Shown here: positions 13,678-64,000 of the stretch, one piece after another
Layout: the number at the start of each line of letters is the position of its first letter
How positions within the stretch are numbered: the stretch's first letter is position 1
Translations under genes and position numbers: made by a program
From: Yuukianura sp. NJ FZ-2021
Taxonomy: Eukaryota
Reading direction: 5' to 3'
Assembly: GCA_046563655.1 (NCBI GenBank)
Contig: CM102286.1
Coordinates: 496,001 to 560,000, forward strand
DNA: 64,000 nucleotides
The notes under the pieces: generated by a model
The model's database searches: none
What the model was told of the DNA's origin: nothing
What the model saw: only the letters and a program-made list of their open reading frames with translations

Positions 13678-13873
13678 CAGACCTGCCAAAAATATGTAGT
13701 TCCCTTGCCTGTAATGCTAACAAAATCAATGTTTCGGATCTTTTTCTTACTAAATATTTATTTATTTTCCATTTCCTTAATGTAAAGGTCGTAAATATTC
13801 CGAACTTTTCCAGTTAATATTGCATTTATTTAAATATTTTGCTTGTTTTTAGTAAATATTTTTGGCAGAGCTG
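13678..13873. mobile_element. hAT-type MITE
   Basis: TIRs cagacctgccaaaaatat / atatttttggcagagctg. 8-bp TSD ctcatgag at 13670-13677 and 13874-13881. Confidence 0.8.
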
Positions 13874-14043
13874 CTCATGAGTCAAACAAAACGGCGTTTT
13901 TCTTGAAGAACAAATTGTAATAACAATTGATTTTTAGAACAAGTATTCTCCGTCTCTCCAACAGAAAATAAAACTCAGTTCTTAAATATTTTTATTTGAA
14001 AACTCTAAAAATTTGGCGCCAAAAATCACTGCCGTTGCTCATG

Positions 14044-18350: not shown

Positions 18351-18995
18351 GGTTTCCAAAGTGCGTATGCTACTCAATCACAATCAAAAGTAAAATAAGA
18401 ATAAAAGTTTTGACTGTTACTTAATTAGTTTTTTTTATCAGAGTTTTTACTACAGTTTAACCTTTGAAGTTTTTTTTTGGCAAAAATTTTTGGCCCAATT
18501 ATGAACAAGTAATTAAAAATAACCGTGATCCAATTCACATAAGTTTCACTCTAATTTTTTGTAATTGAATTAGCAGTTACATTTTAACTAATTATGGGAG
18601 TAAAATTTTCTGAAAACATCAACACAAAAAAAAAGGAAATTTATACAATGCGAGGAAAAATTGGTAAAAATCGTAGCAATGACAAAAGAACAGTAAGTAA
18701 CAATGATAAGAAAGTAACTAAAAAACACAAAAATACGACAAAGTACTAAAAAAAAGTTGTAAACAAAGTTCCAAAAAGCGATTTTTGTAATTTAAAATTT
18801 GAGTTTAAAGGTTTGTATTTTTACTACACAAAGTCAAACAAAACAATTTCTTGAACAGGGAACTGTAAAACTCGATTTTTCATAAAAAAAAGACTTCTTC
18901 CCTTCAACTGACAACTGAAACTCAGTTCTTAAAAAAAGTTTTGATTTGAACACTAACCAAATTTGGCGCCAAAATTATACGTTTTGACGAAATTT

Positions 18996-20431
18996 TCACT
19001 TGAGATTGTTTTTACCTAGTTTCGATGTGGATTGCTGAGATGCGATTTTATACAAATTTCGAATTCCGCCGCCCTCGAACAGATACGCAAGATCCAGAAT
19101 CGCTGTGGTCTCAACTGCCAATGGCGGCAGTTTGTTCAGAATCTCCTTAGGAATGTACTGACGTAGAGGCCAAATCGCTTGTAAACCGAATTCCAGAATG
19201 TTGTTCTGCGCACACTTAGATATGTCTATGTCAAAGTAAGTTCCATGGTCAACAGCGCCTACAAAGAAGTTGAATAAGGATAGTGGACCACGGGATTGTC
19301 CGCAGTCTGGATCTTCATATACTGCAGTTGAGCAGTAGTGGGCAGTTCGATTCCCACTGGGGTCAAAGTTCAAAAAAAGTTCGTTGTGATGGTGGTAGTA
19401 ACCGAGGAAGGCGGGAAAAAACCGGGCTGCAAAGTCACCTCGGTTGACAACTCGGACTGAGATGATGTCTAGACTGTTGATGTAGTCGACGAATGCCTTG
19501 TTGCCACTTCGTGGTTGACCGTAAGTGTACAACTCAATGGTTGTACGCGGGAAAATGTTGTTGTACTTTAAATAAAATGTGGCGATGACTGACATTGCCC
19601 CGCCGAGACTATGACCTGAAAGTCAAGGTCAAAAGTCAACACTGAACTGTAAAGAGGTGCGGTGTGAAAGGTCAAAGTCATGGATGTTGCCAAATTTAAA
19701 TTTGATATAGAATAAGAATTTTAAATATGAACTTCACGTTTGGTTGGGTTTTCACCTGTAATGATCAGTTTGTAAGTTGGGTACAACCTGACCGTTTGCC
19801 TTAGACTTTTTACAATCTCCGTCCAATCTGCGTTGACCATTGTTCGAAACCCGCTGTGAAGTGCAAAATTCGTTCCATTGAGTTTAACCAGCCCTAAGTC
19901 CAAGTCCTGAAGAAAAGTGCCAACATTCCAGCTTGTTCGATAAGTCAGCACAATTTCTTGTCTGCGAGGATCCACTGTGACCATCCACTTTGTGTGATGT
20001 TTTAAATTGTAGTGAATTTTAAAAATCTGAATGTGACTACCAAGAACTTTGCAATATGGACAATCCCACCTCTCCAGACTAGATTCGCACGTGAGCACAA
20101 GTGAGTAGTTGTAGTAGTACATGACAGATTCTAGTGATGGTCGTCTGACATTGACTTGACCTGTGACGTGACCAACATTTGACTTTTCATCTCCATTTTT
20201 CAGTTTCCAGAGTCCCGATGATCTTAGTATGCTGTTTTTGGAGTTCCTGAAATCTAGTACTGGATCGTACTCTGTCATGGAATTTCCAGAAGGAAAAAGC
20301 GACGGAAACGCACTTTTCAAAAAATGGTTAAACAGAGTTCTACCAAAAGAAAAATTTTGCTGTCCAAACCCGGTTTTCACAAAAACTAACACACTGAAAA
20401 CTAAAATTTGAAAATTCAGAGACAGACGCAT
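18996..20431 (-). CDS. Secreted class-3 lipase, copy 5
   Basis: Two exons with spliced GHSLGG, NRGD, DHGTYF. Confidence 0.9.
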
Positions 20432-20970
20432 GGTTGCAACACTTCCGATGCAACTAGTTGCACAATTAGAAGTGAAATGAAAATAAAAGTTGCGACTTTT
20501 ACTTAATTGCCTTCCTTTTTTTTCGTACTTTTACTTTTCATGTTTTTGTGAGAGAAAATGTTGGCCCAAGTTACAAATTTGTTGTTAAAAGTGATCCAAT
20601 TCATATAAATTTCACTCTTAATTTTTGTGGTTGAATTAGCAGTTACATTTTAACTAATTGTGTGCGTAACAAATTAAAAAAAACAACACAAAAACTGAAA
20701 TTTAATACAATGAAAAATTGGTCAAGGTTCAAAAAAGATTTCGCATCAAAAAATGTTATTCACAACAATAAGCAAAACTACTCTAAATCATTGCAGTAAT
20801 GACTAAAATAGTACTGAAAATCATAACAAGTAATTAAAAAAAAAACACAAAAAGCGATCAAGTAACAAAAGTTTAAAACGAAAGTTACTAAAAAGTTGTT
20901 ATTTTTCTTAGATTTTTTGTTTAATAGGTTTGACATTAAATAGAAATTTAACAATTTTTTTAAAAATTTT

Positions 20971-22273
20971 TTAGCTTCTTTGCATGGCGGCTCCAAATAT
21001 TTTGCTAGCTCCACGTCCAGCTACTAGATAGTTAATGTCTGCTAAAACTGTTGACCGCATGCCGAATGCTGGAAGATGCTGGAGCAGTATTTTTGGAAGA
21101 TACTTGCGGAGTGGAAAGAGTGCTTGCATGAAATATTCAACATAGTTTTCCTGTAAACATTTAGTGGCGTCTACTCCAAAGTAGGTCGTGTGTTCCACAA
21201 AACCAATAGCAAACTGGGTAGGAATCACAGATAAAATGGGGCCTCGTGATTGGCCGCATTCCGGAGCTTCGTACCGGTCGGTAGAGCAGTACCGGCCAAA
21301 AATCGTTCCGGTTTCGTCGGTATCGAGAAACAGTTCATTGTGTTGATGGTAATAGCCTAAGGCTACTGGCAGTAACCGGGTCACAAAATCGTCTCGGTTG
21401 ACGATTCTTGCAGAGGGAATGTTTAAATTGTTCATAAATTCGGCAAATGCGCGGTTGCCAGCTCGTGGTTGTCCGCTGCTGTAAAGTTCCATGCGCATGT
21501 CAGGCAAAACGTTCCGAAATTTAAACAGAAACACAGTGACTGTTGCAAGTGAACCACCGAGACTGTGACCTTGAAACACAAAAAAGGTCAAAAGTCAAAA
21601 GATCAAATTTTTTGGAAATTCAAGTGACCTTGAAAATAAATTTCTTACCTACAAAATTCACTTTGAAGTTGGGGTAAACTGAGAAAAGTTGTGAAAGAAC
21701 TTTGGCGATTTTTGGAAAATCGTCATGTGCCGCCTTCAGCGTTCCTTTGTGAATCTGAATATCCGAGTTTTCATCGACTTTTTCCATGTTAAATAAAAGA
21801 TTGGTTAAAACGTTTGCTAAATTTTGAGTTTGGCGAAAAGTAACAACTATTTCGCTCCTGAGGTCATCCAAAGTGACCATCCACTTTGTATGAAAAGTCG
21901 GGTTGACATGAAGCGCGATGATTCGAATGTGCCCACCAAGCAATTTGCACTCATCGCAGTCCCATCTCTCCAAACTCGATTCGCAACTAACTGCAACTGA
22001 GTAGTTAAAGTAGTACTGTGCAGAACTCAACGACGCGCGTAAGGCGCGTACTGGAGTTTTCACTAGGGCAAGTGCAGTTGTCTGATCACCGTTAATAAAT
22101 TTGTTAAGTCCAAGAGCAGTTAAAAAGTCAAATTTCGTTTTTCTGTAAACTTCAACCGGGTCGTAGCGACTGAAATCCGAAAAAGTTTGTGATGATTTTA
22201 AATGTTCCGTGATCCAACTTTTTGAATTTGGAATTAAAATACAACTGAAAGTTAAAAGTTGAAAGAGACGCAT
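20971..22273 (-). CDS. Secreted class-3 lipase, copy 6 (most divergent)
   Basis: GHSLGG, SGQPRAGN, NRDD, EHTTYFG, with the same intron position as the other copies. Confidence 0.9.
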
Positions 22274-22911
22274 GTTGTTAGTTGGACATGCGCCGAAGAA
22301 GTGTCAACTATGTAGAAGAGGCATCAATTTTTTTTCTGCACTACAGCCAGTTTTAATTGTTTTGTGCAAAGCTGTGAGAGAGTTGCATTACATTTTCATT
22401 TTTTGAGTAACAAAATCTTGATCTTCAAAGTTACTTAATTGGTAACAGCACTAAAATTTTAATATTTTTGAAAGTTAAAACTACGCGTACCGTGACAGTG
22501 ATAAAAAATCTCTGAGATTTACACCCACAAAAAAAAACTAAACACATTCGAATTTTGAAAGTAAAAACATTTCAACTGTGAAAGATACACCGTTGTAAAA
22601 AATTTTGTTCAACAAAAAAAGTATAAAATTCAACAAAGTTTTAAAAACTCACTTCAAATTCGAAACGTGTAGATTTTTTTCGTTCTTGCGTAACACATTC
22701 GTTACATTTTTGCTCTCAACACGCTTACGAAAATGTGACGTTTGACCTTGCAGATAATTTTTTTTACACAATGCACTTTAAAACAGCACATCAATTTGTC
22801 GACAAAAAAGTTAAGTGAGTATACTTTTAGTTTCGCACGCAAGGATTTTGCTTCTCTTGTGAAAAAAAAATTGTTTCTGAAATCAGTTTTTTTTAAATTT
22901 TGTTTTTCATA

Positions 22912-25900
22912 ATGGCGGAAAAGTTGAAAATTTTGTTTGTGCCGATCGATGCTGTTGGACACATTAACTGTGTGATAGGCGTGGGTCAAGTTTTGGTTCA
23001 ACGCGGACATTCTGTTACTGTGGCCATAACAAGTTCGTCGAAAGGGAAGCTTCGACCATTTGGCTTCGACGAAATGGTTTACTATGAACAAGTGGAGGAA
23101 ATCAAAGGACAGCAGTATCAAAACAAAATCATGTCGAAAATGGAACATGCAATGGCCTTGACCCCAATTGAAAAATGTGGACAATTGAATCCACAATTGT
23201 ACAGTGGATTAATCGAGCAATTGAAAGCGGGAAATTCAAAAATTGCACAAATAATTGCACAAGTTCAACCGGATTTGATTTTGGCCGATGGCATTTGTTT
23301 CCCGGCAGTTGTGGCACAAAAAGGCAAGTAAATTTAAAATGTGTCATTTTTGAAACAAACAATTTTTTTTTGAAATTTCGAAATTTGTAGAAATTCCATG
23401 GATGGGTTTCATTTCCTTGAATCCGCTGGGTTTTACTGTTGGTGATGTTCCGCCAGCATACAGTGCTTACCCCACCGAACCAAAAGACGCCGACCTCTGG
23501 ACACAATTTATTGAAAAAACGAAGCCCGCGATGTTGCCGATCTTTGAAGATTTCAAATCCTGGGTTTTGAAAAATGGCGGGCCAGAGTTGACCTATACCG
23601 GCTCTCCGTTTTGGACACAACATTCTTCCTGGGGTACTCTCTACATGTTCCCTCAGGAATTGGACTACGTTCGAAAACTCCCGCCGAATTTCCATCGTTT
23701 TGATACTTTCATGCGCCAAGAGAGCGGGGAATTTGAAATTCCTGAAAAGTTGGTCAACCTACCCGGGAAATTGGTTTATCTTTCGATGGGAACCATTGGC
23801 TGCTCGAATCTCGGCTTGATGCGGAACCTCATTCGGATTTGTTCAAAAGCTCCACATCGCTTCATCGTTTCAACAGGTAAAATTTTTAAATTCGGTAACT
23901 TTTCCCACTTTTTAATACCCTACTGTGTTTGTAGGCAAAGTAGTCGCGTAAATTGGTTTCCAAAAAGTATATTTCACAAAATAGGAGTACAAAATTAGCA
24001 TAAATGAAAACTACCTTATTTCTCGTACACTCGTGTTAGTTGAGTCGAGTCCTTTTGACGGACGGTGTATCAGTCGTTACGGCGTGCACGGCATTTGTGC
24101 CTGAATAGTCTTTTTGCAGTCTCGGTGAAGGTGGCTCGTCCACCTTCTTGGCCCATTCTCGTTGCTTCGTAATGAATGGCAGTGGAGCACTCTTTTTTCT
24201 GAAAATATGAAAATTATGGTGCTCAAAACGACATGAGTTATAAAAAGTGTCTCCCGGTCATACCGTTCTGATTCGTCGTCTATCATGTACTTAAAGATTG
24301 CGACGTGATCCTCTGGACTGAGTAGCTGCAGTGGAACAACAAGCTTAGAAAAGTCTGACACATCCATCACTGGGTACCGGATCCACTCAACCAAATCTTG
24401 CAGGACATCCCGAAGAGTTGGTCCAGTCGATTCAAGGCCCCTGCGCTTGCACATTTCTTTTGCCCAACTGTTTTATAAATGAAATGTATTAGTTCTTATA
24501 AATAATAGAGCCTAAACGTTAGGTTTATAAAGCTTACCGGATGACGGCATTAAACACTTGAGTTTCGTTTTTTGCAGCCAATGAATCTGCTGCCAGTAGT
24601 ATGCACAAATTCCCATACGAGAGTTTCAGAACATCATTGGAATCCAAGATAGTTGCCGCGTTCCTAAAAACGGATTTACTAAGATTGTATTGTAATCTAG
24701 TATATACTAAAAAGTGAATTAATTTGTACTTTGTCAGTATTTGAAACTAACTTCAAAATGAAAGTCCGTGCTTTACCGCGCAAAGGTTCATTTTCATACT
24801 CTCCTGCCAATTCGTAAGCGGTAACTGCCGTTTGTTCAGTCATTTGGCCCAGAGTTTTCCAGCACCATTGTTCCAAATCCCGTACTTTGAACGCGATAGC
24901 ATATTTGAGCACGTTGGCTGCGTGCGCTAATTCCGAGTTTTGCCCGGTGTAGACAAACTGAAAGTTTAAAATTGTGAAACTAAAGATCAACCTTGATGTT
25001 TGAACCACTTAAACTAATCTACCATTTTGTATAAAGTTACCTCCAGAAACTGTTCAAATTCCTGTTTGCTTCCCTCTCCAACGCGAAAAATCATAGGTTT
25101 CGGCGGGTTCGGCTCTTTTCGGTTTTTGAACATTTGTTGAAAAACTTTGGAATGGATACTGAGCTGGAACTGATGACCTTTGACCTCCTCCGCGTTTGGT
25201 CCAACGAGAAAGGTCACATCAAAGGGATTAACAAGTCCATTTCTGAGCAGATCAATCTGTCGACTCCTGTGGTTTGTTTCCCGCCAATCCGCCATCTTTT
25301 CCCGCCCTTCCCAACAACTTGTAGTTTACGCAAAAATATCTTTCGTGTGTCCTTTCCTTGCTACAGCTGATTCCCGGACTAACAATAAATACTGTGCAAC
25401 CGGGGGCCTGACTAAAAGTCTGAAGTGCAATCTGATGTGACTCAACTTTGTCAGGAAACTACAATAGACAATTCCCCCGTGACTCCCGTCACCTTTTTGT
25501 TCATTTTTACCACTGGAAAATGCTGGAAAGTCACTGAAAAAAAACTACCTTTTATTCCACACTACTATTCCACAGAATCGTCAGAAGTGCCAATAGTTAT
25601 GGCTAAATGCTGGGAAATTATAAAAATAACTAAAACCAATTATAAAAACATAATTTTTTATAAATAATAGAAAAGAAATTATAAAAATCCAAGGTCAATG
25701 TGTATTACAGGTAAAATGCCTTTGACGACTTACACCGTCAAATGCGCAAAGAAAATTTAATTGCGTGAGACGATAAATAAATATGGTTGTGGAGAAGACA
25801 AATTTTGCTACTATATTTGTCTCAACTCTACTCCGCGCAATTTTAAACGTTAGATGGTTTGACAGGGGCTTATCCAAAAAACTAAAACCAGTTTTAATTC

Positions 25901-26298
25901 TTTATGCAGGACCACTGGGTGATCAGTTGGAAGTTGGCGATAACATGTGGGGGGCCAAGTGTCTACCACAAACAAAAGTCATCCCATTGGTGGATCTAGT
26001 AATTTCACATGGCGGCAACAACACCGTCACGGAAACGTTTTACTTTGGAAAACGACTCTTGATTCTCCAACTATTTTGTGACCAACTTGACAATGGACAG
26101 AGAGTGGCAGAAACTGGGTTGGGCTTGACCTTTGATCCCTGCAAGGTCACGGACGAGGAATTGCTGAATGCCATTGACCAACTACTTGGAGATGAACTTT
26201 TAGAAAAAAGAATGAAAACGATTTCCATTCGAATGAAGGCTTCAAACAGTACAGAAAGAGCTGCAGATTTAATCGAAAACGTTGCACGTTCAAAATGA
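22912..26298 (+). CDS. GT1-family UDP-glycosyltransferase, bacterial/mite type (exons 22912-23323, 23391-23876, 25910-26298)
   Basis: N-terminal KILFVPIDAVGHIN, VYLSMGT, and the UGT signature LPQTKVIPLVDLVISHGGNNTVTETFYFGK...DQLDN. No signal peptide or C-terminal TM. Confidence 0.9.
24036..25295 (-). CDS. BTB/BACK-domain protein nested antisense in UGT intron 2
   Basis: DVTFLVGPNAEEVKGHQFQLSIHSKVFQQMF (BTB) and LQDLVEWIRYPVM (BACK). Multi-exon with GT-AG junctions; stop at 24036-24038. Confidence 0.8.
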
Positions 26299-26789
26299 CA
26301 TTTACAAAACTAAAAATACGGAATCTGTAATAAAAGAAACGTTATTTACAAGCCAGGGTTGACCTACCCCGGCTTTCCAACACATTTTGGATACACTCCA
26401 TTCCATTACCCATGGAGCAGTGATAAGAAATCGGCCTGCCGGGGCAGGTAGATAGGCCAAACCCATGTACCCCCGCGTAATGCGTTTTTATAAGTAGGTT
26501 TAGATATGGAACCAATCAGGTTGTCAGAATCGGCCTCAACAGCCAATCGAAGCGTCAGAATCGGCCTTCATATATCACCATATATCCGGTGATGGCGGGA
26601 AGACAAATCTCTCCACATTACACCTAAGCTATATCAGTGATCACCCCATATTCCAAAATCCCACTCCACTCGGTGAAACTCGTGAGGCCGAGTAATCATC
26701 GGAGAAGGGGGGGAGCTGAGGGGAAGAGAAAGTTTTCATTAACACCTTTCTCCACCCTTTGGCGGTTCAATGAGGATGCTTTCTTCAAT

Positions 26790-26985
26790 GCCCATGGAGT
26801 AACCTTCATATGTTCGAAAACTGCCGCCGAATTTTCATTGTGTTGATTCATCAACACATGCGGGGAACAACAACAAAGCGGGGAATTCCAAATTCCTGAA
26901 TTTATTCAAAAGCTCCACCCACACAGCTCATAATTTCAACCGGCAAAATTTAAAAATCAACAACTTTTCCCGCTTTTTACTGACG
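26790..26985 (+). pseudogene. Decayed duplicate of the UGT exon-2 3' part and intron start
   Basis: Blocks gttcgaaaactgccgccgaatttt, agcggggaattccaaattcctgaa and ttcaaaagctccac match 23668-23880 with indels. Confidence 0.75.
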
Positions 26986-27077
26986 AAATGTACTCTGCAA
27001 GGAAGGCAGTATGTAAACTAGTTTTCAAAAAGTGTTGTTCGCAAAATTAGAACAAAAACTACATTGTTTCTCACAGG

Positions 27078-28844
27078 CTAGTTAACTCGAGGCTTTTTGT
27101 CCCATGACTCCTCTGCATCAACTACTGCCGTTGCTTGCTCAATCAAGTGATAGAGTGGATCATAGTAATCTAAACCGTGTGGGTTTGGAGCAGCTGGATG
27201 TTTCGGATTCTGGCGTTTTGGTTTCCGTTTTAGTGGTTCCACCTTGGACCCGCGTCGTTTCTTCGTATTGAATGGCCATACGTAAATTTTGTTTCTAAAA
27301 AATGTGAAAATTCAAAATTGTGATGGTGAAAATAACATTAGCGCAGTGTTAACAGATGGATAAAATATTTCTGCCACCTAAATCAAATTAGATTGAAGTA
27401 TCAATTTTATCCAGCCATTTCTATCGGGTATTACCGGATGACACATTTTATCCACTGGTCAAAACTTCAATAAACTGGACATGCAGCAATAATGCATGAA
27501 CGAACGTGTAATTAAAATGTGGGCTTTGCCAAGGTTCATAAACAAGAAAATAGATTTTTCTTCAACAGGTTAGGCAATAACTCTAACTTTTTAAATTTTG
27601 TAAAAAAAAAAATTAGCAAAACTTGGTTCGCCATTCTGTCCTATGGCATATACAATGATGATTTGTATGTAATCAAATGGGATTGGCGGAAAAGTGTTGG
27701 CAGCGAAATTTTTAGAAAAACGTACTTATTGCCGCACCTGTTAAAGACGAAACTATTTCGTTGCAATAGGAACCTTGGCTTTACCGTTCGGATGTGGTAG
27801 TGGCGTTCAAGTAAGAAAGGAGAGAAGTCTTCTGGTCCTTAGTGAGGAGGAGTACTTTCGGTGGAGCCACGAGAGCCTTGAAGTCGTTCCGATTCATCGT
27901 TGGAAACCGAATCAATGGGACCAAATCTCTCAGAACCATCTTCAGAGCTTCGTTGGGATCGGGCGGTCGAACGCTCATGCGTTTGCACTGGTCGTTCCCC
28001 CAACTATTTTTTTGTTATATACAAAGTCACATGACAGAATTACGTCAAAAAAGCATACCGTTTTCATTGAAACTTTCTTACCGCAGAAGGGCTTTGAACA
28101 CTTGAGTTTCGTCTGTCGCAGTCAGTTCATCTGATTCCAACAATTCCATGAGGTTGCGAGACGTGAGCTTCAAAAATTCAGCTGAATCCAAGATGGTTCT
28201 TGCTTTCCTACGACAAACAAATACACAAAACGAAAGTGATTTGTAGTTTTTTTTTTTTTAGTTTTGCTTTGGAAGGAAACCTCAAAATGAAACGACGTGC
28301 GTCATATCGCAGTATGTCTTTTCTATACTTCGCTGCCAGTTCGTAAGTGGTAACCGCCGATTGTTCAGTAATTTTTTCAAGACTTTCCCAGCACCATTTT
28401 TCCAACTCCGCCACATTGAACTGGACCGCATAGTCGAGCAAGGTGGATGCTTGTGCTGGTTCTGGGAATACGCCGGTGTATACAAACTAAAAGTTTAAAA
28501 GAGTGAATCAAACGTGAGAATACTGAAGGATGGTCACTCTCGAGGTTTAAGTGAACCACTAAAAATGTCTACCGTTTTTAAGACGTTACCTCCAGAAATT
28601 GTTCAAAGTCGTGTTTGGTTCCGTCATGAATCCTCTCGCGGGGATGGAGATGTTTTTGGTCTTTGAACTTTTGTTCAAAGACTGCAGAGTGGATACTGAG
28701 GATGGACTGATGTGCTTTGACCTCTTCTCTCTTTGGCCCCACCAAGAATGTCACATCGTATTGATATCCACGCTCATTTTTGAGCAGCTCAGTCATTCGA
28801 CGACTGTGGCTTGTTCCTGATTTCTTACGCCAATCTAGTGCCAT
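27078..28844 (-). CDS. BTB/BACK-domain protein, paralog of the nested gene
   Basis: YDVTFLVGPKREEVKAHQSILSIHSAVF, LEKWCWESLEKITEQSAVTTYELA, LRDLVPLIRFPTM. Exon layout parallels 24036-25295. Confidence 0.8.
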
Positions 28845-29301
28845 CTTCTTCAGCCTTCTCCAAGATCTTGTAGTTTCTGAAACAATCGTTGTCGTGAGTC
28901 CTCTGCTGGGTGAAGCTGATGCTGACCACTTTTGTACAACTACTGCGCAATTTTAGTGCAATATCTGGTTGGAGTCCACAAAACAAGCGGCGTGTAGAAT
29001 TTTTAAGTTTTACACTGTCCTCTTTGGGTCCGCAGCCCACGCTGGTGACTCACCAATGGATAACACTAATCTAATCTAATTTCAGATTGAGTATTTTGCT
29101 AATTTTATGGATTTCAAACTACGGTGAGATGAAAGATAGAAATAGAATGGAAACTAGTACTTGGGAATGAACGATCAGAAAAAAGATTAAAAACGATTCA
29201 AACGAAGTCATAAAAGATTACGGAAAGCGGTGCAGGTTTAATTCAAAACGTGGCACGTAAAAGTAACTGCGTTTATTTTCCAAAAACATAAACTTCAAAA
29301 T

Positions 29302-36319: not shown

Positions 36320-46108
<9,789 letters not shown>

Positions 46109-49884: not shown

Positions 49885-51015
49885 TTATACTTCGAGTTGT
49901 TCGTAAATCCAGTCGTCTTCAGACCTGTATCTCCGACATGGTCGTTTTCCCGCCTTTTTCTTTTTTAAATCTGTTCGTTTTTTGAATTTGACTCTGTCTC
50001 CGATGGAATTGGGATCGTTTTGGTAGAATTCCATCGTTTGTGGTCGGATAATGTAACCACCCCAGTCTTCTGGAAATGGAACTTTGAATCCTGGGCACTG
50101 CGCAAGTGCAAGGAGTTTCTGCGTTTCGAACAAAATTTCTTGTTTTCTCGTTCCACCGATACACTTTGATTGGTGTTGCACAAAGGCGCGAACTTGTTCA
50201 TCAACAGGCCGGGATTCAAAATAGTCCATGTTCTCTTTTCGACTCAGTTTTGAACTTTGACCTTCGACACGCACTTGACGCTGACCTGTGGCGTTGACCT
50301 CACCTTTGGGCACAAAAGACCACAGAAAAACAAGGGCAGTCCAGTCGTTGTCAGCCTTTTTAAAACAAAAATTCAAAAATTTGAATTCCGCGCCATCGGC
50401 GCGTACGATAATGTTAAATGATTCACCAGTTCATGGGCTTTGGGTGACGTGTAATCTGTGTAGATTTTGAATCCACTGGCATTGTAGTCTCTTAGTAGAA
50501 GCGTACGAGCTGCAGGACGTCCATTCCTAAATTTTGAAGGAAAATTTTTAACGAAAGTGAAAATTTTTTAAATTTGAAGAAATATGACTTTTACTTTTGT
50601 ACTGTTGACATTGACATGCTTTCAGGAAAAATGTTTTCAGCCCGACTTTTTGCTTCCAAGTACCAAGATTCCCAGAGTTTCATTGGCCCTCTTCCGTTCA
50701 CTTCGATTTCCGTGTACTCAATCTAAAAAGTTTAACATTTCGAAACTACAAACATGTGAAACAGCAAAAAAGATTAAGAATCTAAGTTTTACCTGTTTTC
50801 CAGTTCCTAAACACAAAAAATATGGAGAATTACAAATGAAGAAAATTCTAAAATTGTGAAATTTTCTTACCTCCGCATTTTCTTCTCTCCACTCCTCTGC
50901 ATCCTAAAAGCCAACAATTTTAATTAATCAATACAAATTAAATTGGCGAAAGCGTCGAAATACCTTTTGCTAATACCAAAAAGCACAACAGCGGAAATAA
51001 GTGATTGCAATGCAT
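49885..51015 (-). CDS. Divergent pyridoxamine 5'-phosphate oxidase-like protein with signal peptide, 265 aa (exons 51015-50964, 50903-50871, 50806-50793, 50722-50595, 50526-50427, 50355-49885)
   Basis: GRPAARTLLLR, RQVRVEG, YFESRP, HQS and WGGYIIRPQTMEFYQ motifs. All exon phases fit. Confidence 0.8.
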
Positions 51016-51669
51016 TTAGAAAATGAAAACTGCAACTGATGCTTTATAAAATTTTGTGTCAATTTCAAATTCGATAGCAAAAGTACTGATTTTTGTAACC
51101 TCGTTCCAAATAGTAGACAAGAACAAAAGCAGGGATCAAAATTCTCTAAAAATTTTCCTCTTTTTGTATTGTGAAGTTTGAATTTGACATTACATTGTAG
51201 CTGTCAAGTATGTGCTTGTGCATATTTTTTCAACAAAAACATGTTTTCTTTTTTGAAAAGCACAATTTTGTAAGCATATCAAACAGTAATCAATATTTCA
51301 AAATTTCAGTTAATAGTGGAGCGTGTCAATGTGAGTGGTTGTGGTCAGCGCTTTAACATAACATGTTTTTGTGTGCGGTTTTGTTGAAGAGGCCTCACCT
51401 CAAAAACTTAATTAAAATTAAACAAGAACAATTAAATTAACGCAAGAAGATGCCTGTAATTAAACTCTAAAATATGCAATCTAACAAGAAAATTAAAGTT
51501 TTACCGCAGACTTAAGTGCTCGCAAGTTCGGTATTTGACCAAAACTGATAAATTTTTAAAATTTACGAACTTATAAATATGGTTCTGTGTCAATTATTAA
51601 TCACAAACCTCACACTATCAAACTTGAGCGTTTCTTAAATTTAAAATTTAAAAAACATCACATACAACT

Positions 51670-54600
51670 ATGGTCTACCCAACTTATTCCGTAAAAAACG
51701 TTTACCATTTGAATTCATGTTTTTTGTTTGTTTTCCAAAATAAAGGAAGTTTTACAGTGGCGGCCAAAATTATTGGGACACCCAGTGTAAAAATTTTTAA
51801 ACAACGATAACTTTTTAACGAAGTGTCATAATTAATAACTCGATACGTCATTTTATTCAGAAAATAGTTCTTTCCAATCTCCCAAGTTTTTAGAACTTGA
51901 AGTCAAACGGTTTATTTTATGGAATTTTTTAAACTCAAAACGTCAAAATTCTCGCGGTCAAAATTATTGGGACAGCTGGGGTTTTGGAACGAAATCAACA
52001 GTTATTGGCATTAGTCTTCCATCGGTAAGTCACCTAACTTAATTTTTAGTACTTACTAACACTTGTAGTTAATTGTTGATTAGTTTTTCAGAGATGGTTG
52101 GCAATATCAAGGAAGTTCCAGGACCGATACGCGACCTAATCATTCAAGGTTGGGTTGGTGACGAAAATGGTACAAAATCAGTTCGTCAGCTGTCCGAATT
52201 GTACCACGTACCCAAGTCAACAGTACATAGCATCATACAAAGGTACCTCAAGACCGGTCATGTCGAAAACAAAGTCGGAAGGGGCCGTAAACCAATTCTT
52301 ACTGAGAGGGAAGTTCGCCTGATCACCAAGAAAGTGAAGCTGGACAATCGAGTAAGCGCCGTAGAACTGTCCAAAACACTCAAAAATGACCTTGACACGA
52401 AGTGAGCCGAATTTATCCATAATTCCGTTAATAAATTCCAAGGTTCCAGCCCCGTTTGTAGCCATGCAGCCCCAAACCATGACACTGCCTCCTCCGTGTT
52501 TCACAGTCACATTGAGGTTCTTTGGTTTTAAGGCTTCACCAATACCTCTTCGGACATATTTTCGTCCATCTGACCCCAAAACGTTGACCTTTGACTCGTC
52601 CGACAATAAAATTCTTTCCCAAAACGATACCGGCTTCATAAAGTGTTCTTTTGCAAACTTCAATCTCTTGGCTGCATTCTTCTTTGACACAAACGGTTTT
52701 CGCAACGGCTTGAAAGCTCTCAAATTCTGATTGCAAAGTACTCTTTGAACAGTACGGGGGCTGACTTCGGTGTCAAGGTCACTTTTGAGTGTTTTGGACA
52801 GTTCTACGGCGCTTACTCGATTGTCCAGCTTCACTTTCTTGGTGATCAGGCGAACTTCCCTCTCAGTAAGAATTGGTTTACGGCCCCTTCCGACTTTGTT
52901 TTCGACATGACCGGTCTTGAGGTACCTTTGTATGATGCTATGTACTGTTGACTTGGGTACGTGGTACAATTCGGACAGCTGACGAACTGATTTTGTACCA
53001 TTTTCGTCACCAACCCAACCTTGAATGATTAGGTCGCGTATCGGTCCTGGAACTTCCTTGATATTGCCAACCATCTCTGAAAAACTAATCAACAATTAAC
53101 TACAAGTGTTAGTAAGTACTAAAAATTAAGTTAGGTGACTTACCGATGGAAGACTAATGCCAATAACTGTTGATTTCGTTCCAAAACCCCAGCTGTCCCA
53201 ATAATTTTGACCGCGAGAATTTTGACGTTTTGAGTTTAAAAAATTCCATAAAATAAACCGCTTGACTTTAAGTTCTAAAAACTTGGGAGATTGAAAAGAA
53301 CTATTTTCTGAATAAAATGACGTATCGAGTTATTAATTATGACACTTCGTTAAAAAGTTATCGTTGTTTAAAAATTTTTACACTGGGTGTCCCAATAATT
53401 TTGGCCGCCACTGTAAATCTTGAATTTCCTATTTTTTGTTTTTGGATTTTAGTATGGCGATCCAGAACTCGAGGCCAAAACGAACTTGCGCAGCCGGTAC
53501 GGACAGGCTCAAGACTACAACACGATCTTGAGCCAGGGTGGCGTTTTTGAAGATCCGGAATTCCCGCATGAGCAGAGCAGTGTTGGCGACATTGATGAAC
53601 TACTGGACACTGCAAATCCAAGTGGGGCCGCCATGGTGGCGAAGTGGAGATATCAGGGGTGGGATGGGACTGCGAAGTGGCTCCGGGTCAAGGTAAGACC
53701 ATGCTGGCTGACCTATGGAAATGACCCACAGGTCAAAGACCTTTCCAAGTGGCGAAGAGGTTAATGACCTTTATGATTGTTGGCAACATTCCCATTGCTT
53801 ATCGTCAAGGACGAGGTTGCATGGAAGTGCTGAGCTGAGATATCCGCTCCATCCTAAGATAGTGTTGGAAGGAGCCGATAGCTCTTTCCGTTAGAGCAGT
53901 TCCCGGATTGAAGAGATATGGGTGCGAATCCCACTCGGTTCTGATATTTTTCCACACTATTTCCACTCCGTCCTCACCTCATGCCATATGAGCCCCCTTA
54001 AACTCCGAACATTTTTTTTCAGGATTTGTGTAGAATCAAGTATGGCGAATGGTACGGTTACGAGGCAGTGTTTACGCGGGAGAAGATTGGTGAGGAGTCC
54101 GGTCGCATGGACATTAAGCAAGGGCGAACGGGGGATTGCTGGTTTCTTTGCGCAGTTTCAGCGGTTTGTAGCGTCAAGAGCGTCATTGAGCAGGTCGTAT
54201 CGGATGATAACCATGACAACGACGTAGGAGTTTACCACTTCAGGTGCAACTGCTTACGATTTGTCAACCTAAATACCTTATCTAGCATATATAACTATAG
54301 TTATTTAATACCATAATATTTATATTATATTTATTTGTATATTTATGTATTATAATTCAAAATTTATTTGTGGATTAGGTTTTGGCATCTGGGGTGCTGG
54401 GTGGACATTGTCGTAGATGACTATGTCCCGGTATACGTCGTTGGCAGTCAGCACACCACTGCTGGTTCAGACTTCAACATAAACGGTCGGTCAGCCGAGT
54501 TCTGGCCGATGCTTCTGGAGAAAGCATACGCAAAGTAAGTGTAAGCTAGATTAATTAATTAATTAATTAATTAATACTTTATGTTAAATTAAATATGAAA

Positions 54601-55916
54601 CTGATTTAAATTAAAACAGGCTTCACGGATCCTACTCTACCATTAGTGGCGGGAAGCCTACGTTGGCGTTGCAAGCTCTGACGGGTGGATTCGGCGAGTA
54701 CTCCATCTTCCAACTAGGCGTGCCCGACAAATTTTTTGAACAGATCAAGGACATATTGAACCGAAACACGTTCATATGTGCCGGCACATCCGCCAATCAT
54801 CCCGTAAGCCACACAATTTTAACCCCAGAGTTCAGGTAAATCCGTTACCGTTCGCAGCTGCTATACATTACCCGATCCCGATCCTAATTAGAATGATCGG
54901 GACGAGCACGCCGATCGGGAACCCCAGAACTCCCAGAACACACCACCCCATTGGTTTTAATACTTATTACTTACAATGTATTTGGATATAGTTAGGGATC
55001 GTGGGAGGTCATGCTTACTCAATCAACAAAGCGGCGACTTTGGACGTGGTTGACTACTACGGACGGCAGTCCCAGGTCAACTTGCTTCGCATTCGAAATC
55101 CCTGGGGGTCAAGTGAGTGGAAGGGAGATTGGGGGGACAGGTCAGCGTTGTGGGACCTCGTGAGTCAGGAGCAGAAGGATGCCATTGGGTTTTCACAAAT
55201 GGAAGATGGCGAGTTCTGGATGTCTTTTGAGGATGTACTCAGTTGCTTCAGTGACCTCGGGGCATGTACATATGCAGATGAGCCGAGGATTGACGAACAG
55301 CTGCAACTTTGTCAATGCACGTTTGTTCAAGAAATTGGTGAATGGAGTGTTGCAGGGAATACTGCTGGTGGGGCGAGTAAGGAAATTAATTTATTTAACT
55401 TCAAATACTTCTTACAGTAAAACCTCACTTATAACAACTCGTTGCGATACCGTAAACTCTCGATTAAAAATGGATTCCACTATTTTTAGATGCTCCACAG
55501 GATAATCCACAGTACACCATTGACATTTCAACGCCAACCGTACCGAATCGTGTTTCGGGGATGTTAGTGTCATTGAACTTGGTCCAGAACATCAACGACC
55601 GGTCAATTGGAACTACTGGGGGAGGCATTTTGTTTCGAGTTTTTGAGGTAAAGTTTGAATAAAAGTTGACACCTTGTGTACAGAATAAAAAGATTTGATG
55701 TTGTAGGCGACCGGATCAGAGTCTCCCTACGACAAAAACTTCTTCTACTACCACAAGGAGCACATGCCTCACGACTACCCTGAGCATGTCGCACTCCCCT
55801 TCATCACCAATACCATGGCTTACCTACTTCCAGCCGGACGTTACGTGATCATTCCGTGCACGCAAAATGCTGGATATGAGTCCAAGTTCCATATCCGCAT
55901 TTGGGCCACGAAATAA
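51670..55916 (+). CDS. Atypical calpain, CysPc plus domain III, no EF-hand domain (exons 51670-51690?, 53453-53692, 54023-54243, 54379-54534, 54620-54803, 54992-55376, 55490-55647, 55707-55916)
   Basis: FEDPEFP; triad QGRTGDCWFL, GHAYSI, RNPWG; LLEKAYAKLHGSY; NPQY; PAGRYVIIPCT. The first micro-exon is inferred. Confidence 0.9.
51755..53413. mobile_element. Tc1-family transposon derivative with two left ends (foldback) in calpain intron 1
   Basis: TA TSD; terminus cagtggcggccaaaattattgggaca at both ends; inner direct repeat at about 51954 (IR/DR). Arms 51755-52408 and about 52759-53413 are near-perfect reverse complements. Confidence 0.95.
52409..53074 (-). pseudogene. 3'-truncated Tc1 transposase (about 222 aa)
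   Basis: HTH region, GRGRKP, LSDESK (first catalytic D), TVKHGGGSVMVWGC. Breaks at GIMDKF before the remaining D and E. Confidence 0.9.
53871..53942 (+). other. tRNA-like element in calpain intron, same family as 44344-44416
   Basis: Shared ccggattgaagaga.atgggt.cgaatcccac core; stem ggagccga/tcggttct. Confidence 0.6.
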
Positions 55917-56596: not shown

Positions 56597-59500
56597 ATGG
56601 CGTCGAAGTTAAGGATTCTACCAATGCTAACAACAGTTATCCTCTTAGTAATTTTTGGATTTTCGTCTCAAGTAACAGGGATCTCCGTTATGAGTGTTGA
56701 CTTGGGATCGGAGTGGATGAAAATAGGAATAGTTTCGGTAAGTTGAACTGAATTTTAGTATCAATTAAAAGTGCGGATTAGTCTTAATACGTTTTACTAT
56801 ATAGCCTGGAGTGCCCATGGAAATCGTTTTGAATAAAGAGTCAAAGCGGAAGACACCGGTTGCAGTATCGTTCCGTGACAATGAGCGGCTCATTGGAGAA
56901 GATGCACTGAACGTAGCAGTGCGTTTCCCATCTAATGCTTACCTTTACTTCTTGGATCTCTTGGGAAAGAAGATTGATAATCCAATTGTAGAGCTTTATC
57001 AAAAGAGATTCCCTTACTACAAGTTAGTTCCTGATCCTGAGCGTGGGACAGTTCTTTTTCAACATGACAGGTAGACTTAACTAAGTTCATAACAGCTGAT
57101 TGATGATTAATTGTTAATTACTGTTTCATCTGTTTGCAGTGAAACTTTTTATTCACCTGAGGAACTCCTTGGAATGATTCTAAGCCAGGCTCGTGACTAT
57201 GCTCAGGAATTTGCCAGTCAACCAGTTAAGGAAGCAGTCATCACCGTTCCACCTTATTTCAACCAGGCCGAAAGACGAGCAGTTCTGCACGCAGCCGAAT
57301 TGGCTGATATCAAGGTTCTCCAGCTCATGAACGCAAACACAGCCAGTAATCTTTGACTACATTTTTGGATTTTGATAATGTTAGTCGTCGGAGTGTCGTT
57401 TTTAATACACTTGAATCTTGTTAGGTGCTTTGAACTATGGTATTTTTCGCCGAAAAGACTTCAACGAGACACCTCAGCACCTTCTATTGTATGATATGGG
57501 AGCATCTAGTACAGTGGCCACGGTAATCAGTTACCAGATGACCAAAACTAAGGAGAAGGGCGTTGTTGAAACTAATCCACAGTTGACCATTCTTGGTGTT
57601 GGGTAAGTCTAGAGTTTGAAATTACTCTGCGATCATCATGTTTTGAGAAATAAGTTGATCAGCTGATTTATTTCGTTTCAGGTACGATCGTACACTCGGT
57701 GGTCTGGAAATGCAACTTCGGCTGAGAGATTTTCTGGGCAAGGCTTTCAACGCCCTGAAGAAGACGAAAACTGATGTTTTTACTAACCACCGTGCACTGG
57801 CCAAACTGTTCAAGGAAGCCGGCAGACTCAAAAACGTTTTGAGTGCTAACGCTGATCACTACGCTCAGGTTGGCTAAGATTTTTTTTTCTATTTGCAGTA
57901 TTTTCTAACCTCAAGTTTTTCGTTACTCGTTGTTCGATTCAAACTGCAAAAGTAAAAAAAAAAAAAAAAAACATTGGGTTTCAGTTCATTTTCGATGCAG
58001 GCTGAAGTCACCGTTTGGATTCAACCTTGAAAATATGAAAACAGTTAAAAAAAAATCTCATTTTTGAAAAAGATGTTTGAAATGTATGGATGTTTTTTTT
58101 TATTACAGGTTGAAGGTCTGCTGGACGAACAAGATTTCAAAACTTCCGTTTCCCGTGCCGAGTTTGAGAATTTATGTGAAGATCTCTTCGAGCGTGTCAA
58201 CTATCCAGTTGAACAAGCGTTGAAAGCCGCAGGAATTACAATGGACCTCATTGACCAAGTCATTTTAGTTGGTGCAGGAACACGGATTCCAAAAGTCCAA
58301 GAGAAACTGACAGAAGTTTTGAAACGAGAATTGGGAAAGAGTCTGAACACGGACGAGGCAGCAGCGATGGGCGCCGTTTACAAAGCAGCGGATCTCAGCT
58401 CTGGATTCAAAGTCAAAAAGTTTTTGACCAAAGATGCTGTTCTCTTTCCCATTTTGGTAACTTTTTAAAACAAATCGCTGAAAGTTTAACACAAATCGCT
58501 GAAATTAGTCATGAACTGTTTCTTTTGCAGGTCGATTTTGAGCGGGAACTGGAAGGAGAAGACGGAGCCGCCCGACCAGTAAAGATTGTTCGTCGAACTC
58601 TCTTTTCCTACATGAATCCTTATCCGCAGAAGAAAATCTTAACATTCAACAAACATGTTGACGACTTTAGCTTCTACGTCAGCTACGGCGAGTTACAAGT
58701 TCCAGCACACGAAGCCAAGTAAGATTCTCTTTTGAACTTTTAACTTCAGCATCAGCTGATTTTCATTTTTGTTGTTTTTAGTGCCATCGGAAGTCCTAAC
58801 ATTACCAAAGTAAATCTGAAAGGAGTTGGAGCAGCACTTCAGAAGAATATTGGCGATGGTATTGAAGTGAAAGGCGTCAAAGCACATTTCAATTTGGACG
58901 AAAACGGAATCATCAGTCTCACTCTAGTCGAATCTGTATTTGAGAAGAACGCAACCGTGGAAACAGTTGCTACTGCAGAAGAGGATACACTTTCTAAATT
59001 GGGATCAGCTTTTAGCAAGTTATTTTCCGGTTAGTTTCGAAATGAGCTGGAAAATTAAGGATTTGACTTAGATTTTGATTGAAACTGTTCATTTTTCAGG
59101 AAGTGGAGATGAAATTCCGGCACAAACTGAGCCTAAAGACGGAGAGAGCAGCGAACAGTCTGAGAATGCTAGAAGTGAGGAAAGTAAAAAAGAGGAAGGA
59201 AGCAAAGACAATGACACTGAAACCGATTCGAAAGCTAAAACTGGAGAAGACAAAGTAGATGGAGCTAAGAACGAGTCAAAAGCGCCCGAGAAGGACAAGG
59301 TCACTGAAAAGAAATCCAAGTTGGTCGTGATCAAGGAAGCGATTGACGTCGAGACGTCCATGCTCGATGTACTGCCACTCCAAGGAGAGAAGTTTCAAAC
59401 CTCGGCACAAAAGTACTTTCAATTTTCAAAAATGTACTGAAATTCGACAATTTTAGTGATGCACTTTTTTGAAATAGGTTGAAGAATTTGGATGAAATTG

Positions 59501-60438
59501 ACAAGGCTAAAGCGCTGAGAGAAAAAGCAAGAAATTCACTGGAGAGCTTCGTTTCGGACATGCAGGACAAAACGACTTCTCCCGACTTTGAAATGTTTTT
59601 GACTGAACAAGAGAAAGAGAAAATTGCCGCTTTTTGCTCAGAGGTAATTTTGGATTTAAAAATTTCAAAAAAAAATTGTTTCAAAATTTTGTGTTTTCAG
59701 ACTTCTGACTGGCTTTATGAAGATGGATTTGAAGCTGAAAAGTCCGTTTTTGAAGACAAGTTGAAGCAGTTGAAGTTTTTGACCAAAGACTTTATGGATC
59801 GAGTGAGAGAACACAAGGAGAGGCCGGATGCTTTAGAAGCTTTGGAGCAAATGCTGAATCTGAGCACCACTTTCCTGGACAGCTCTAAAAAGTTACCAGA
59901 AGATCTCCAGTATTTTACAGAAGTTGAATTATCCACTCTGTCCAAAGTTGTGAAGGAAACGCAGGAATGGAAGGCCAAAATGTTCAAAGAACAAGCAGAA
60001 GTTCCTCTTTCTCAACCGCCAGTTCTCACTATCCGAAGCATTGCAGAAAAAATCGACTCGCTGGATCGTGAGGTAAGTTTTCAAAATTCTTGGAAAACAA
60101 ATAATTTTGAACTTTTTCAATTTTCAATTTTTTGAATTTTTTCTTAGGTGAAGTACATGATGAACAAAGCCCGCGTAGAGCGATTGAAGAAGCAGCGAGA
60201 GGAAGCAGCTAAAGCAAAGGAAGAAGAAGAAAAGAAGAGCAAAGAAGCAGAGAAAAAGGCCAAGAAGAAATCAGAGGAGACTTTACCGGAAGAACCGACG
60301 ATACTAGAAACAGAATTACCGGTACTTGACGAACCAATCGACGGCACCGAAGAACCGGGTTCGTCTTTACCGGACGACACCGAAGAGAAACCGGAACCAA
60401 CTAAAACTAAAGAAGACGGCCAACACACAGAACTATAA
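56597..60438 (+). CDS. HYOU1: Hypoxia up-regulated protein 1 (GRP170/ORP150, ER Hsp70 family)
   Basis: Signal peptide, [49 protein letters not shown], acidic insertion, C-terminal HTEL. Confidence 0.96.
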
Positions 60439-61004: not shown

Positions 61005-64000
61005 CTACCCTAAAGTGGCAACAATGGCGTAAACCTTGGTCGATTGCGGATCTAGAAATTGTTTAAAGTGAGCCACTGCTCGTAGCCACTTTTTTGAGGT
61101 TTGCCACGTCGATTCAAACGTCTGGACTGTCAGTGTAAGTGCAATTCCAAAGGCGTAAATGTAAAATATAGTTTGAATGCTGTCGTGTAGGCTAATTGGT
61201 TTTACCGCCATGACGGTGCTGTTGAGTTGCTCCTTGAGCGTGAACTGCGTGCGATTTGGTCCATGTACAAGAAATATCGTGGTCAACCACTGGTAAATTC
61301 CGGTTTCAACCAGTGTCCGAAAATAGTACGGTACTTTGGAACCTCCATAATTTGAAAACTGCCAAACCCTGAAGTTATCCAAGATTCGGCTCTTTCCAAG
61401 TCTAAAATGAATTCCTTTATAATAACGTTGTAAGTACTCTAGCTCTTGTAGTACGCGCCTCGCCGTTTCGACGTAGGCTGTACGTCCACACTGCACAATA
61501 ATCCTCTCCACGGCGCTATCATATGGAATCGGACTTGTCAATTGTTCGTTCTTGCCTAGATGTGTCCAAGGAGGCGGATGTCGGCACTTGAAAGGATGCA
61601 GCAAGTTCCAAAACAGTTTGTCATCCGGGTATGGCGGTTGGAGTGTTGCATTTGAACTCCAGTCAGTTCTGCGCATGAACATTCTCTCTTCATTCCTCAA
61701 CAGCATTTGATTGAACCTTGTGTACTGAACTATACCATCCGTACCATCATGAGTTTCATCTGGATCTTGACCGTACAACCGAAACTCAGTTGCATTGGGT
61801 TCAGTAATTTGTCTCGCATAAAATGTTTCCCAATAGAAGTGTAGCGAAACGTTGTACGATGAATGTGTTTCGTCATAGAAATCTGTGAAATTTGTGACAG
61901 ATTTCCTAGGCAACGGAGCTGTAATTGACGTAACGGCTATTCCTTTATATCCATTCGTGAACAGAATTCCAGCAAGAAGCCATCCGCATAGACCAATACG
62001 AAAAAAGTTGTGTCTTTCCAGTGTTAGTGGAATTTTAGCCGATTGTTCCAATATACTTGATAACATAAAGAGGTATGACGAAAAGTGAGTTGCTGCAATT
62101 CCAACAGTGTTGGTGGATATACACTTTTTCAACATATCGTCCACGGCTGGATATCCAGTGGAAGAAATGGATGAAACCAAAGGGACGGAGGCTTGCCGGC
62201 GGAGTTTAAGTAAATTGAATTAAAAACACCGGAAAAACTCAAATAACTTTAAATAAATTTCAAAAAGAAAGGCAGTATTATTTTTTCAGTTTTTTTTATA
62301 ACAAAACGATGCAAAGTGCGTTTTGAAAACATTTTGTAATTTCAAATTTGAATGTTTTCAATTTCTCACAAAATTTTTAATTTCTTCCGTCTGCTGAAAG
62401 TTTCGTCGAGTAGGGACAGGGACACATTTGTTCCTTCCCGTGGATATCGACTGGCATGTTTAAGTATCCACCAACACTGTATTCGCATTAGCCGAGTGGT
62501 AATGTCTCCAAGAATCGCCAAGCCACAAATTTGAATAGAAATTGCAGTCCAAAGTTTAGGTTGAAATGGTGTAATGTAGTATTCAAAGGACAGGAAAGGT
62601 TTTGAATAGCATGTTAAGAATATGTACTCATCTTGTTCTACTGGGACAACCGTTGTATCCGGAGTGATGTGAAATATGCAGGGATGAGTTGCAGAGAAAG
62701 TAGGGTAAATTCCAGCTGGATTTTCAGTGAAAAGATTCAGTTCTGCGACATACGTTGGGTTGAACCTTGCTTCCTTGAGGATGACTCCGTAGTGTTTAAA
62801 CGAAACAGGTTTTGTAGTTGCATTCCCTTTGGCTAGCAGCAGGTTCAAGATGAAGTGTTGGAATACCTGGTGACCCCACGCCCACATTTTGGCTGGATTA
62901 GCAGTTTTTTGCACTATGTTGGCATTCCATTGGTATTCAACTTCTTTCACCTCTTGATGCCTCGTTCGCATCCATACCTTTCCGGAATTCTCAACAGAGA
63001 ATAGGCTCTGAAAGCTGAAGTCATTGAAAAGCGCTGAAGGCTCAACCTGTAAACGAACAATTAGTATGTACCTCGCAATTATTTTTCTCTTTTGATACCA
63101 TTATTGTCCTCCTATGTCCATCGTAGCTGTCCATCGTCCATCTAACCGCTCTCATTTTACAAACTCACCAAAAATTCTGAAAGGCGGATTTGGAATCAAA
63201 TTACATCACCAAAGGTATCGGCAAGGTAAATAGAATAGTATATTTTCAAACACCATCACATCGTCTAACGTTCTACAGGAGGAATTTGGAAAAAGTGACG
63301 ATTATAGGCTGAGAAATTCACTAAAGTGTAACTTCCTTATTTATGACAAATTCAAATTTTCCAAAATATTGTTTTTCTCAAATACCACCATACCATCTAA
63401 CTTTCTACAGGAGGCATTTGGAAAAAGTCACGATTAGGCTGAGAAATTCACTAAAGTGTAACTTCCTTATTTATGACAAATTGAAATTTTCCAAAATATT
63501 GTTTTTCTCAAATACCACCATACCATCTAACTTTCTACAGGAGGCATTTGGAAAAAGTCACGATTAGGCTGAGAAATTCACTGAGGTGTAACTTCCTTAT
63601 TTATGACAAATTGAAATTTTCCAAAATATTGTTTTTCTCAAATACCACCATACCATCTAACTTTCTACAGGAGGCATTTGGAAAAAGTCACGATTAGGCT
63701 GAGAAATTCACTAAAGTGTAACTTCCTTATTCACGACAAATTCAAATTTTCCAAAATATTTAAAAAAAAAAATAATAATAAATCAAAATCAAAAAAATTA
63801 AATCAAATAAATCGAAAAATTAATCAACAATAAGGAAAACGTTATTAATTCAGGGTTCAAGAGGTTAAGTAACCCAATGCTCTCTTACCTGCCACATCGA
63901 AGGAGGTTCGCATTTCGGGCAAGCTGCAAATCCTGTGGATTTTCTTTCCAAATCTCTGATGTTATTTTTGACATGGAGGTTCCAGTTTTCACTGAATATT
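61005..64000 (-). CDS. Divergent ionotropic-receptor-like membrane protein, 5' end outside the window, interrupted by a MITE (possible pseudogene)
   Basis: Open exon 64000-63889 splices in frame to 63046. Motifs FLTCY...YITPFQPKLW + TM, WLLAGILFTNGYKG, LVETGIY, then a final TM resemble divergent IR/iGluR topology. Confidence 0.6.
62105..62479. mobile_element. hAT-type MITE inserted in the IR-like coding exon
   Basis: Perfect 15-bp TIR cagtgttggtggata / tatccaccaacactg. Decayed 8-bp TSD aattccaa / tattcgca. Same termini as 14796-14987. Confidence 0.85.
63255..63760. repeat. 130-bp tandem repeat (about 3.9 copies) in the IR-like intron
   Basis: gaggcatttg recurs at 63411, 63541 and 63671, with a divergent first copy near 63280. 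Confidence 0.95.

Follow-up and report, generated by a model that had tools for sequence, protein, structure and literature searches.

PNPO is usually a single housekeeping gene. Characterised PNP/PMP oxidases carry the mark EFWxxxxxRxHxR, and PhzG, an oxidase that has the PNPO fold and binds FMN, binds no PNP and oxidises a non-B6 substrate (both points from PMC4556617). An E. coli variant without the equivalents of K100, Y157, R161 and H227 keeps FMN and barely binds PNP, according to PMC8215295. Of another kind is CREG1, an animal split-barrel glycoprotein with a signal peptide and a fold related to that of PNPO; for CREG, PMC6212480 describes a blocked FMN cleft, no activity and no bound FMN.

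The gene dealt with here lies in a window of 64,000 nucleotides (the whole stretch of DNA that was analysed, positions 496,001 to 560,000 of contig CM102286.1 of Yuukianura sp. NJ FZ-2021) and belongs to a family of PNPO paralogues, apparently undescribed, in which the pocket is rewired and the cofactor site intact. No description of such a paralogue was found in the literature searched, in which subscription papers were thinly covered and from which supplements fell outside. Its parts are as follows.

51015-49885, minus strand: the whole PNPO-like gene, six exons, 265 aa in a 265-codon open frame.
50964..51015, minus strand: predicted exon 1 (52 nt), with the start codon and a hydrophobic leader, residues 1-17.
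50871..50903, minus strand: predicted exon 2, a basic micro-exon of 33 nt, phase 1 to 1, GC 0.52.
50793..50806, minus strand: predicted exon 3, a micro-exon of 14 nt, phase 1 to 0.
50595..50722, minus strand: exon 4, in which the conserved core begins and E77 is replaced by Phe.
50427..50526, minus strand: exon 5, with the equivalents of R95 and K117 kept, the changes K100R, N112D and R116P, and sequon N91.
49885..50355, minus strand: exon 6 including the stop codon, with RQVRVEG, EFYQ, SIGDR and sequon N130.

The gene is genuine. An in-frame stop stands immediately 5′ of the exon 1 ATG, and the five introns, of 60, 64, 70, 68 and 71 nt, are all GT-AG. The PNPO-like reading frame of the first-pass annotation, with the start residues quoted there, was reproduced in the 265-aa frame, its 33-nt and 14-nt micro-exons are present in the predicted spliced model, and the motifs it cited (LLR, TD..SPK, EFYQ, SIGDR, QLEV and RQVRVEG) are all there as quoted. 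Identity to human PNPO is 35% over 232 columns, with exon 6 matching at E 4e-21 and exon 5 at E 0.001-0.002. On exon 6, PF10590 scores 41 bits (cut-off 27) and PF01243 a partial 21.6 bits, partial because that domain is split across exons; in full-length relatives both domains, PNPOx_N and PNP_phzG_C, are present. Also in exon 6 are a clade-specific insertion of 7-9 aa ahead of RQVRVEG, where sequon N130 is situated, and two new residues, Glu162 and Arg165, at the positions of human S165 and G168, together with the cysteines C174, C196 and C249.

Elsewhere in the window the minus strand carries, at 8775-22303, six class-3 lipase genes in tandem whose leaders look signal-like, and the plus strand, at 134-8312, three long genes in tandem, each a single frame of about 500-565 aa, that by eye have an F-box/LRR look (the one scanned gave no Pfam match). 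By eye also, a plus-strand UDP-glycosyltransferase-like gene seems to extend across BTB-like genes of the opposite strand (22897-26298 and 24077-28952), possibly an arrangement of nested genes; its first exon gave no more than a weak, unrelated Pfam match. Further genes are a DYRK-like kinase (38211-46108), a calpain (53900-55500), an Hsp70-family member (HYOU1-like, 58049-60438) and an ionotropic-receptor-like gene (61005-63100), the kinase, calpain and Hsp70 domains being backed by Pfam, and the finer names and the receptor label being given by eye.

In the genome searched, a 98.7-Mb assembly of 22 contigs for which paralogue counts are lower bounds, there are at least three PNPO genes: this one, a second divergent paralogue (L003) on contig C4 and a copy on C6, with a weak extra match on C1 (E 0.36). 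The C6 copy is canonical, having 8 of 8 substrate residues and 10 of 11 mapped FMN residues (roles as given in PMC10969823), and the gene in the window is not the sole PNPO, a possibility that the first-pass annotation had raised. The second divergent copy is placed as follows.

L003:282-1893, C4 at about 14.021-14.023 Mb: second divergent paralogue, 13.5 Mb from the gene in the window.

L003 has 47% identity to this gene and the same type of changes, together with three sequons and a lost D228 (lost likewise in its relative P0006). Two intron positions are common to all three genome copies and a third to L003 and the canonical copy; shared positions of this kind point to duplication within the animal lineage. 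That this gene is a PNPO paralogue standing beside a canonical PNPO is supported. Horizontal transfer from bacteria was considered and is not supported, the intron positions being shared with the canonical copy.

The HMMER search gave 1589 proteins at E 0.001 or better, of which 150 were listed and 22, plus two, were taken, and further members are possible. In the tree of paralogues whose construction the first-pass annotation had suggested (33 rows, midpoint root, the long row P0054 dropped), 13 rows form one clade with a long stem and 100/100 support. It comprises this gene, L003, four named springtail proteins (Orchesella cincta ODN05762.1, O. dallaii CAL8101064.1, and Allacma fusca CAG7831228.1 and CAG7724221.1) and seven metagenome proteins, L012 and P0006 being among the clade rows, and it diverged faster than the canonical copies. 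The closest named relatives among the matches listed are all springtails. This gene is joined to L012 (100/98) and L003 to P0006 (100/96), and the two pairs form one group (100/99), which places the split of the two copies earlier than the divergence of this species from the one that has L012 and P0006. In comparison with the orthologue L012, 115 of 187 residues are identical and 34 of 48 four-fold sites differ, which argues for strong purifying selection. L012 was the single orthologous locus from 546 pattern matches in the metagenome scan; of the 1865 candidates from an exon-alignment search, the three that reached E 1e-25 were all among the known relatives, and the ESM Atlas gave PNPO-type clusters only. 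Three relatives, each an unbroken frame on a contig of 1.0-1.3 kb, are probably spliced transcripts. Judged from sequence, this is an old PNPO duplicate in the springtail lineage whose pocket remodelling is likewise old and clade-wide; what the first-pass annotation missed is a whole family with fixed and specific replacements.

Departures from ordinary PNPO were also seen in other lineages. A 438-aa model from Ceutorhynchus assimilis (P0008, CAG9761058.1) has two tandem PNPO domains, the second with partly altered motifs, and reflects either a separate duplication or the fusion of two gene models. A rotifer PNPO from Adineta vaga (P0020, UJR14984.1) with EFYQ and RLSDR (W219Y, H227S) falls outside the springtail clade. 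Many bacterial proteins of about 400 aa among the matches listed, with Massilia and Telluria named, fuse PNPO to PF01814, which we take to be hemerythrin.

For the active site, residue roles are those of PMC10969823, in human numbering mapped through macaque PNPO. On the substrate side R225 and H227 are each kept in 0 of 13 clade members, as against 19 of 20 other rows; E77 is kept in 0 of 9 and S165 in 2 of 13, K100 has become Arg in 11 of 11, and Y157 is retained by all 13. R161, present in 20 of 20 other rows, is Glu in 12 of 13 clade members, the sole exception being this gene, so that the YF.SRP which the first-pass annotation took to be kept does persist here but not clade-wide. This gene has Glu at S165 instead, and an acid is therefore still in the pocket. 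New residues recur across the clade: Arg at human G168 (12 of 13), Asp at N112 (10 of 11), Tyr at W219 (12 of 13) and Glu before the last residue (13 of 13). Among the phosphate and ring ligands this gene keeps three of six (Y157, R161 and W206; the others read E77F, K100R and S165E), and with K100R being conservative, part of the phosphate site survives. The mark EFWxxxxxRxHxR is broken at three positions, the W, the first R and the H all being replaced. The pdxH equivalog TIGR00558 (cut-off 180) is passed by none of five full-length relatives (121-155 bits) and by both controls, a scan in which the window protein was represented by exon 6 alone. Four of the five pass the cut-off of the broad subfamily NF004231, which, with none passing the equivalog, explains their database names. 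Loss of the substrate clamp is supported, and since the replacements are fixed and specific, they suggest a new ligand rather than decay. By its residues, the gene falls outside the true PNP/PMP oxidases.

The cofactor side gives a different picture from the substrate side of the same pocket. Clade members keep the FMN ligands R95 and K117 (11 of 11 each), Q139 and R141 (12 of 12 each) and Q174, S175 and R229 (13 of 13 each), with E217 in 11 of 13 and Asp there in two. Less constant are T111 (5 of 11), R116 (3 of 11, and Pro in this gene) and W219, kept in 0 of 13 (Tyr in 12, Phe in one) as against 19 of 20 other rows. This gene has nine of the eleven (R95, K117, Q139, R141, Q174, S175, E217, R229 and T111), the exceptions being R116P and W219Y, and the dimer ion-pair residues E143, R181 and D228 are kept, as in canonical PNPO. 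Retention of the FMN site is supported at the level of these residues, though FMN may be bound less well as a result of R116P, W219Y and the missing terminal Pro; in the human enzyme R116Q increases the Kd for FMN 20-fold, according to PMC10969823. With the relative P0174 as stand-in, the predicted structure (pLDDT 92) has human PNPO as its best match (E 3e-23; TM 0.77/0.88 to 1NRG), and the model is confidently of the PNPO fold.

No homologue of exons 1-3 was found. Their chance occurrence was gauged by shuffling the 450 nt upstream of exon 4 under strict and relaxed rules, the criteria for the chain having been fixed after it was seen, so that the figures flatter the leader. Under the strict rules (1500 shuffles) a three-intron chain turned up twice when any frame was allowed, and never when it had to run in frame from an ATG or to be signal-like as well; under the relaxed rules (400 shuffles) the corresponding figures were 27, 2 and 0. 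Just one of 277 acceptor-like sites in the window has a signal-like chain, namely that of this gene. All three leader donors read AG|GTA, GC in exons 1, 2 and 3 is 0.37, 0.52 and 0.43 as against 0.28, 0.22 and 0.26 in the introns, and the leader introns are of the same size as those within the conserved core. Chance is an unlikely explanation of the leader exons, and the exon model is probably right, with the leader translated. Two features further upstream are pertinent.

51706..51708, minus strand: candidate alternative start, an ATG followed directly by a phase-0 donor, which may be chance.
51033..51039, minus strand: ATCAGTT, which we take to be initiator-like by its consensus, about 20 nt upstream of the ATG; a weak sign, such words being common.

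The ATG|GT at 51708-51706 could splice in frame to exon 4 to give a leaderless form, and the same layout is found in L003 and in P0006. About 40 nt from this alternative ATG, and about 730 nt upstream of the PNPO-like gene, is a Tc1/mariner-type element (window 51747-53421) with 652-nt inverted arms of 99% identity, both of which include the 5′ part of the transposase gene; its frame at 52217-53095 has HTH domains and no DDE domain match, and the element looks like a recent insertion. An origin of the leader by copying from a neighbouring lipase gene was rejected, the 7-residue match being put down to compositional chance. No DNA match of the leader to the window extends beyond 13 bases, and no second copy of the leader region was found in the genome.

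The reading that we tentatively prefer is of a PNPO duplicate that became an FMN oxidase of another substrate and later acquired a three-exon leader, most likely directing it to the secretory pathway. The protein would very probably be a homodimer of PNPO type with FMN at the interface, and the balance tips slightly towards a reaction in which a substrate stacked against the flavin gives up a hydride that is passed on to O2, yielding H2O2, as in PNPO and PhzG. Because R225 and H227 are lost and an acid is now in the phosphate pocket, the substrate would be one without a 5′-phosphate, probably with an amine or other cation, the first candidates being unphosphorylated pyridoxamine or pyridoxine, a small amine or an N-heterocycle. 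Relatives that have no leader show the remodelled pocket too; most likely, then, neofunctionalisation preceded the leader, which this copy would have gained once the pocket had changed. A fuller version, in which a secreted, FMN-holding oxidase acts extracellularly on B6 vitamers that carry no phosphate, or else on some other small amine or N-heterocycle (a dietary, microbial or defensive compound), and makes an aldehyde and H2O2, is speculative and in its entirety unlikely.

On the leader's sequence features, a cleaved signal peptide, and with it secretion, has about an even chance. The 9-residue hydropathy is 2.88 (2.96-3.6 in five lipase leaders of the window), and the small-residue rule for cleavage fits two sites, after A16 and after G18. 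Alternatively, the altered FMN oxidase may act in the cytosol, either through an uncleaved anchor in the ER or outer mitochondrial membrane or with a main transcript that is leaderless, which is conceivable if somewhat unlikely. The charge is 0 before the hydrophobic stretch and +5 after it, and no charge before with positive charge after makes for an N-out, C-in anchor with a cytosolic domain, the compartment in which FMN is available. Starts are leaderless in seven of seven full-length relatives (highest 9-residue hydropathy 1.38), a count to be read with the caveat that gene callers can miss micro-exons or pick later starts. The start is polar in both Orchesella models, P0006, sister to L003, has Met directly before the core, and the L012 contig begins in the intron before exon 5, its 5′ end lying outside. 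In favour of export, L003 has a candidate leader of its own, an ATG|GT exon followed by a hydrophobic, in-frame candidate cassette exon of 96 nt (L003 686-781, GC 0.40), candidates of which type occur in 16 of 2000 shuffles; yet at membrane-span length (19-residue hydropathy 2.14) it also suits an anchor, and by eye it is unrelated to the candidate leader of this gene and of different intron phase. ATG|GT sites lie upstream of both paralogues, in keeping with the cytosolic alternative. In the fuller, unlikely version above, the pair may alternate between a cytosolic and an exported form, depending on whether leader exons are included or skipped. Against the cytosolic alternative, the hydrophobic stretch in this gene, about 11 residues with a 19-residue hydropathy of 1.27, has less than the length expected of an anchor and a value covered by the lipase leaders (1.15-1.94), the cleavage rule fits at the two sites, and three new cysteines (C174, C196 and C249) are shared with the orthologue L012 and absent in the other 11 clade members. 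Sequons were rejected as evidence of secretion: their position is not conserved, L012 being without N91 and N130 and having one elsewhere, and leaderless relatives carry 0-3 (the NAS sequon reported earlier is present, but the sequons number two). Of the neofunctionalised extracellular protein put forward by the first-pass annotation, paralogy, the kept FMN site, the lost clamp, purifying selection and a leader unlikely to be chance are supported, but the extracellular location is not established, given the leaderless relatives, the unconserved sequons and a charge pattern that fits an anchor.

Other alternatives concern catalysis itself. One is a pseudo-enzyme, whether secreted or not, that would carry or store FMN or a B6 vitamer without catalysis; it is rather unlikely, even with the hydride-transfer clamp R225/H227 lost throughout the clade, the precedent of CREG for the evolution of a secreted, non-catalytic split barrel, and partial retention in this gene of the allosteric PLP site (F48Y, with E50 kept). 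Of that site, H248 is kept in 2 of 13 clade members and R258 in 5 of 13, neither being kept in this gene, and the substrate side has fixed new residues and not free drift. Continued PNP/PMP oxidation, slow or of shifted preference, would have Arg165 and K100R stand in for the lost phosphate ligands; the universal Y157, the conservative K100R, the Arg added at G168, the R161 kept here and the relatives that pass NF004231 all lend it something, but the broken signature, the scores below the equivalog cut-off that both controls exceed, and the canonical copy in the genome make it improbable. Decay of a functionless duplicate can appeal to divergence faster than in canonical copies and is barely credible in the face of an intact frame and splice sites, the strong purifying signal against L012, clade members in at least three named species and three relatives whose uninterrupted frames are probably spliced transcripts.

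If the preferred reading extends to a secreted oxidase, the protein would be, to our knowledge, an extracellular FMN enzyme unprecedented in animals, and would stand for a new branch of B6 or secondary metabolism in springtails. We know of no extracellular FMN enzyme in animals, and export, if true, poses the problem of how FMN gets into a secreted animal protein and would take extracellular chemistry in soil hexapods beyond what is known; a cytosolic protein would still be a new enzyme candidate. A long-kept paralogue family has been labelled ordinary PNPO in databases, and the protein is an easy target, small, likely soluble and with a clear assay, that offers a natural test of the role of R225 and H227 in specificity.

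The four named springtail proteins, annotated as PNPO, are in the same clade and have the same pocket changes, with 34-37% identity to this gene and models without a hydrophobic leader, and their database names (PNPO/PLP synthase) are probably wrong. With PNPO this gene has in common the FMN ligands, the dimer ion pairs E143/R181/D228 and, with the canonical copy of its own genome, two intron positions; it differs in the lost clamp, a new pocket Arg and Glu, the insertion of 7-9 aa, the LE-x end and the hydrophobic leader. No CREG family or structure was among the matches listed in the domain, sequence and fold searches, and in contrast to CREG this protein descends from PNPO and, as read from its residues, keeps the FMN ligands. 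As a working model by analogy there is PhzG, the bacterial FMN-dependent phenazine oxidase (NF038138), to which the P0174 model has a fold match at E 5e-15 with 21-22% identity, and whose family profile scores 69-105 bits in five of five relatives, below its cut-off of 270.
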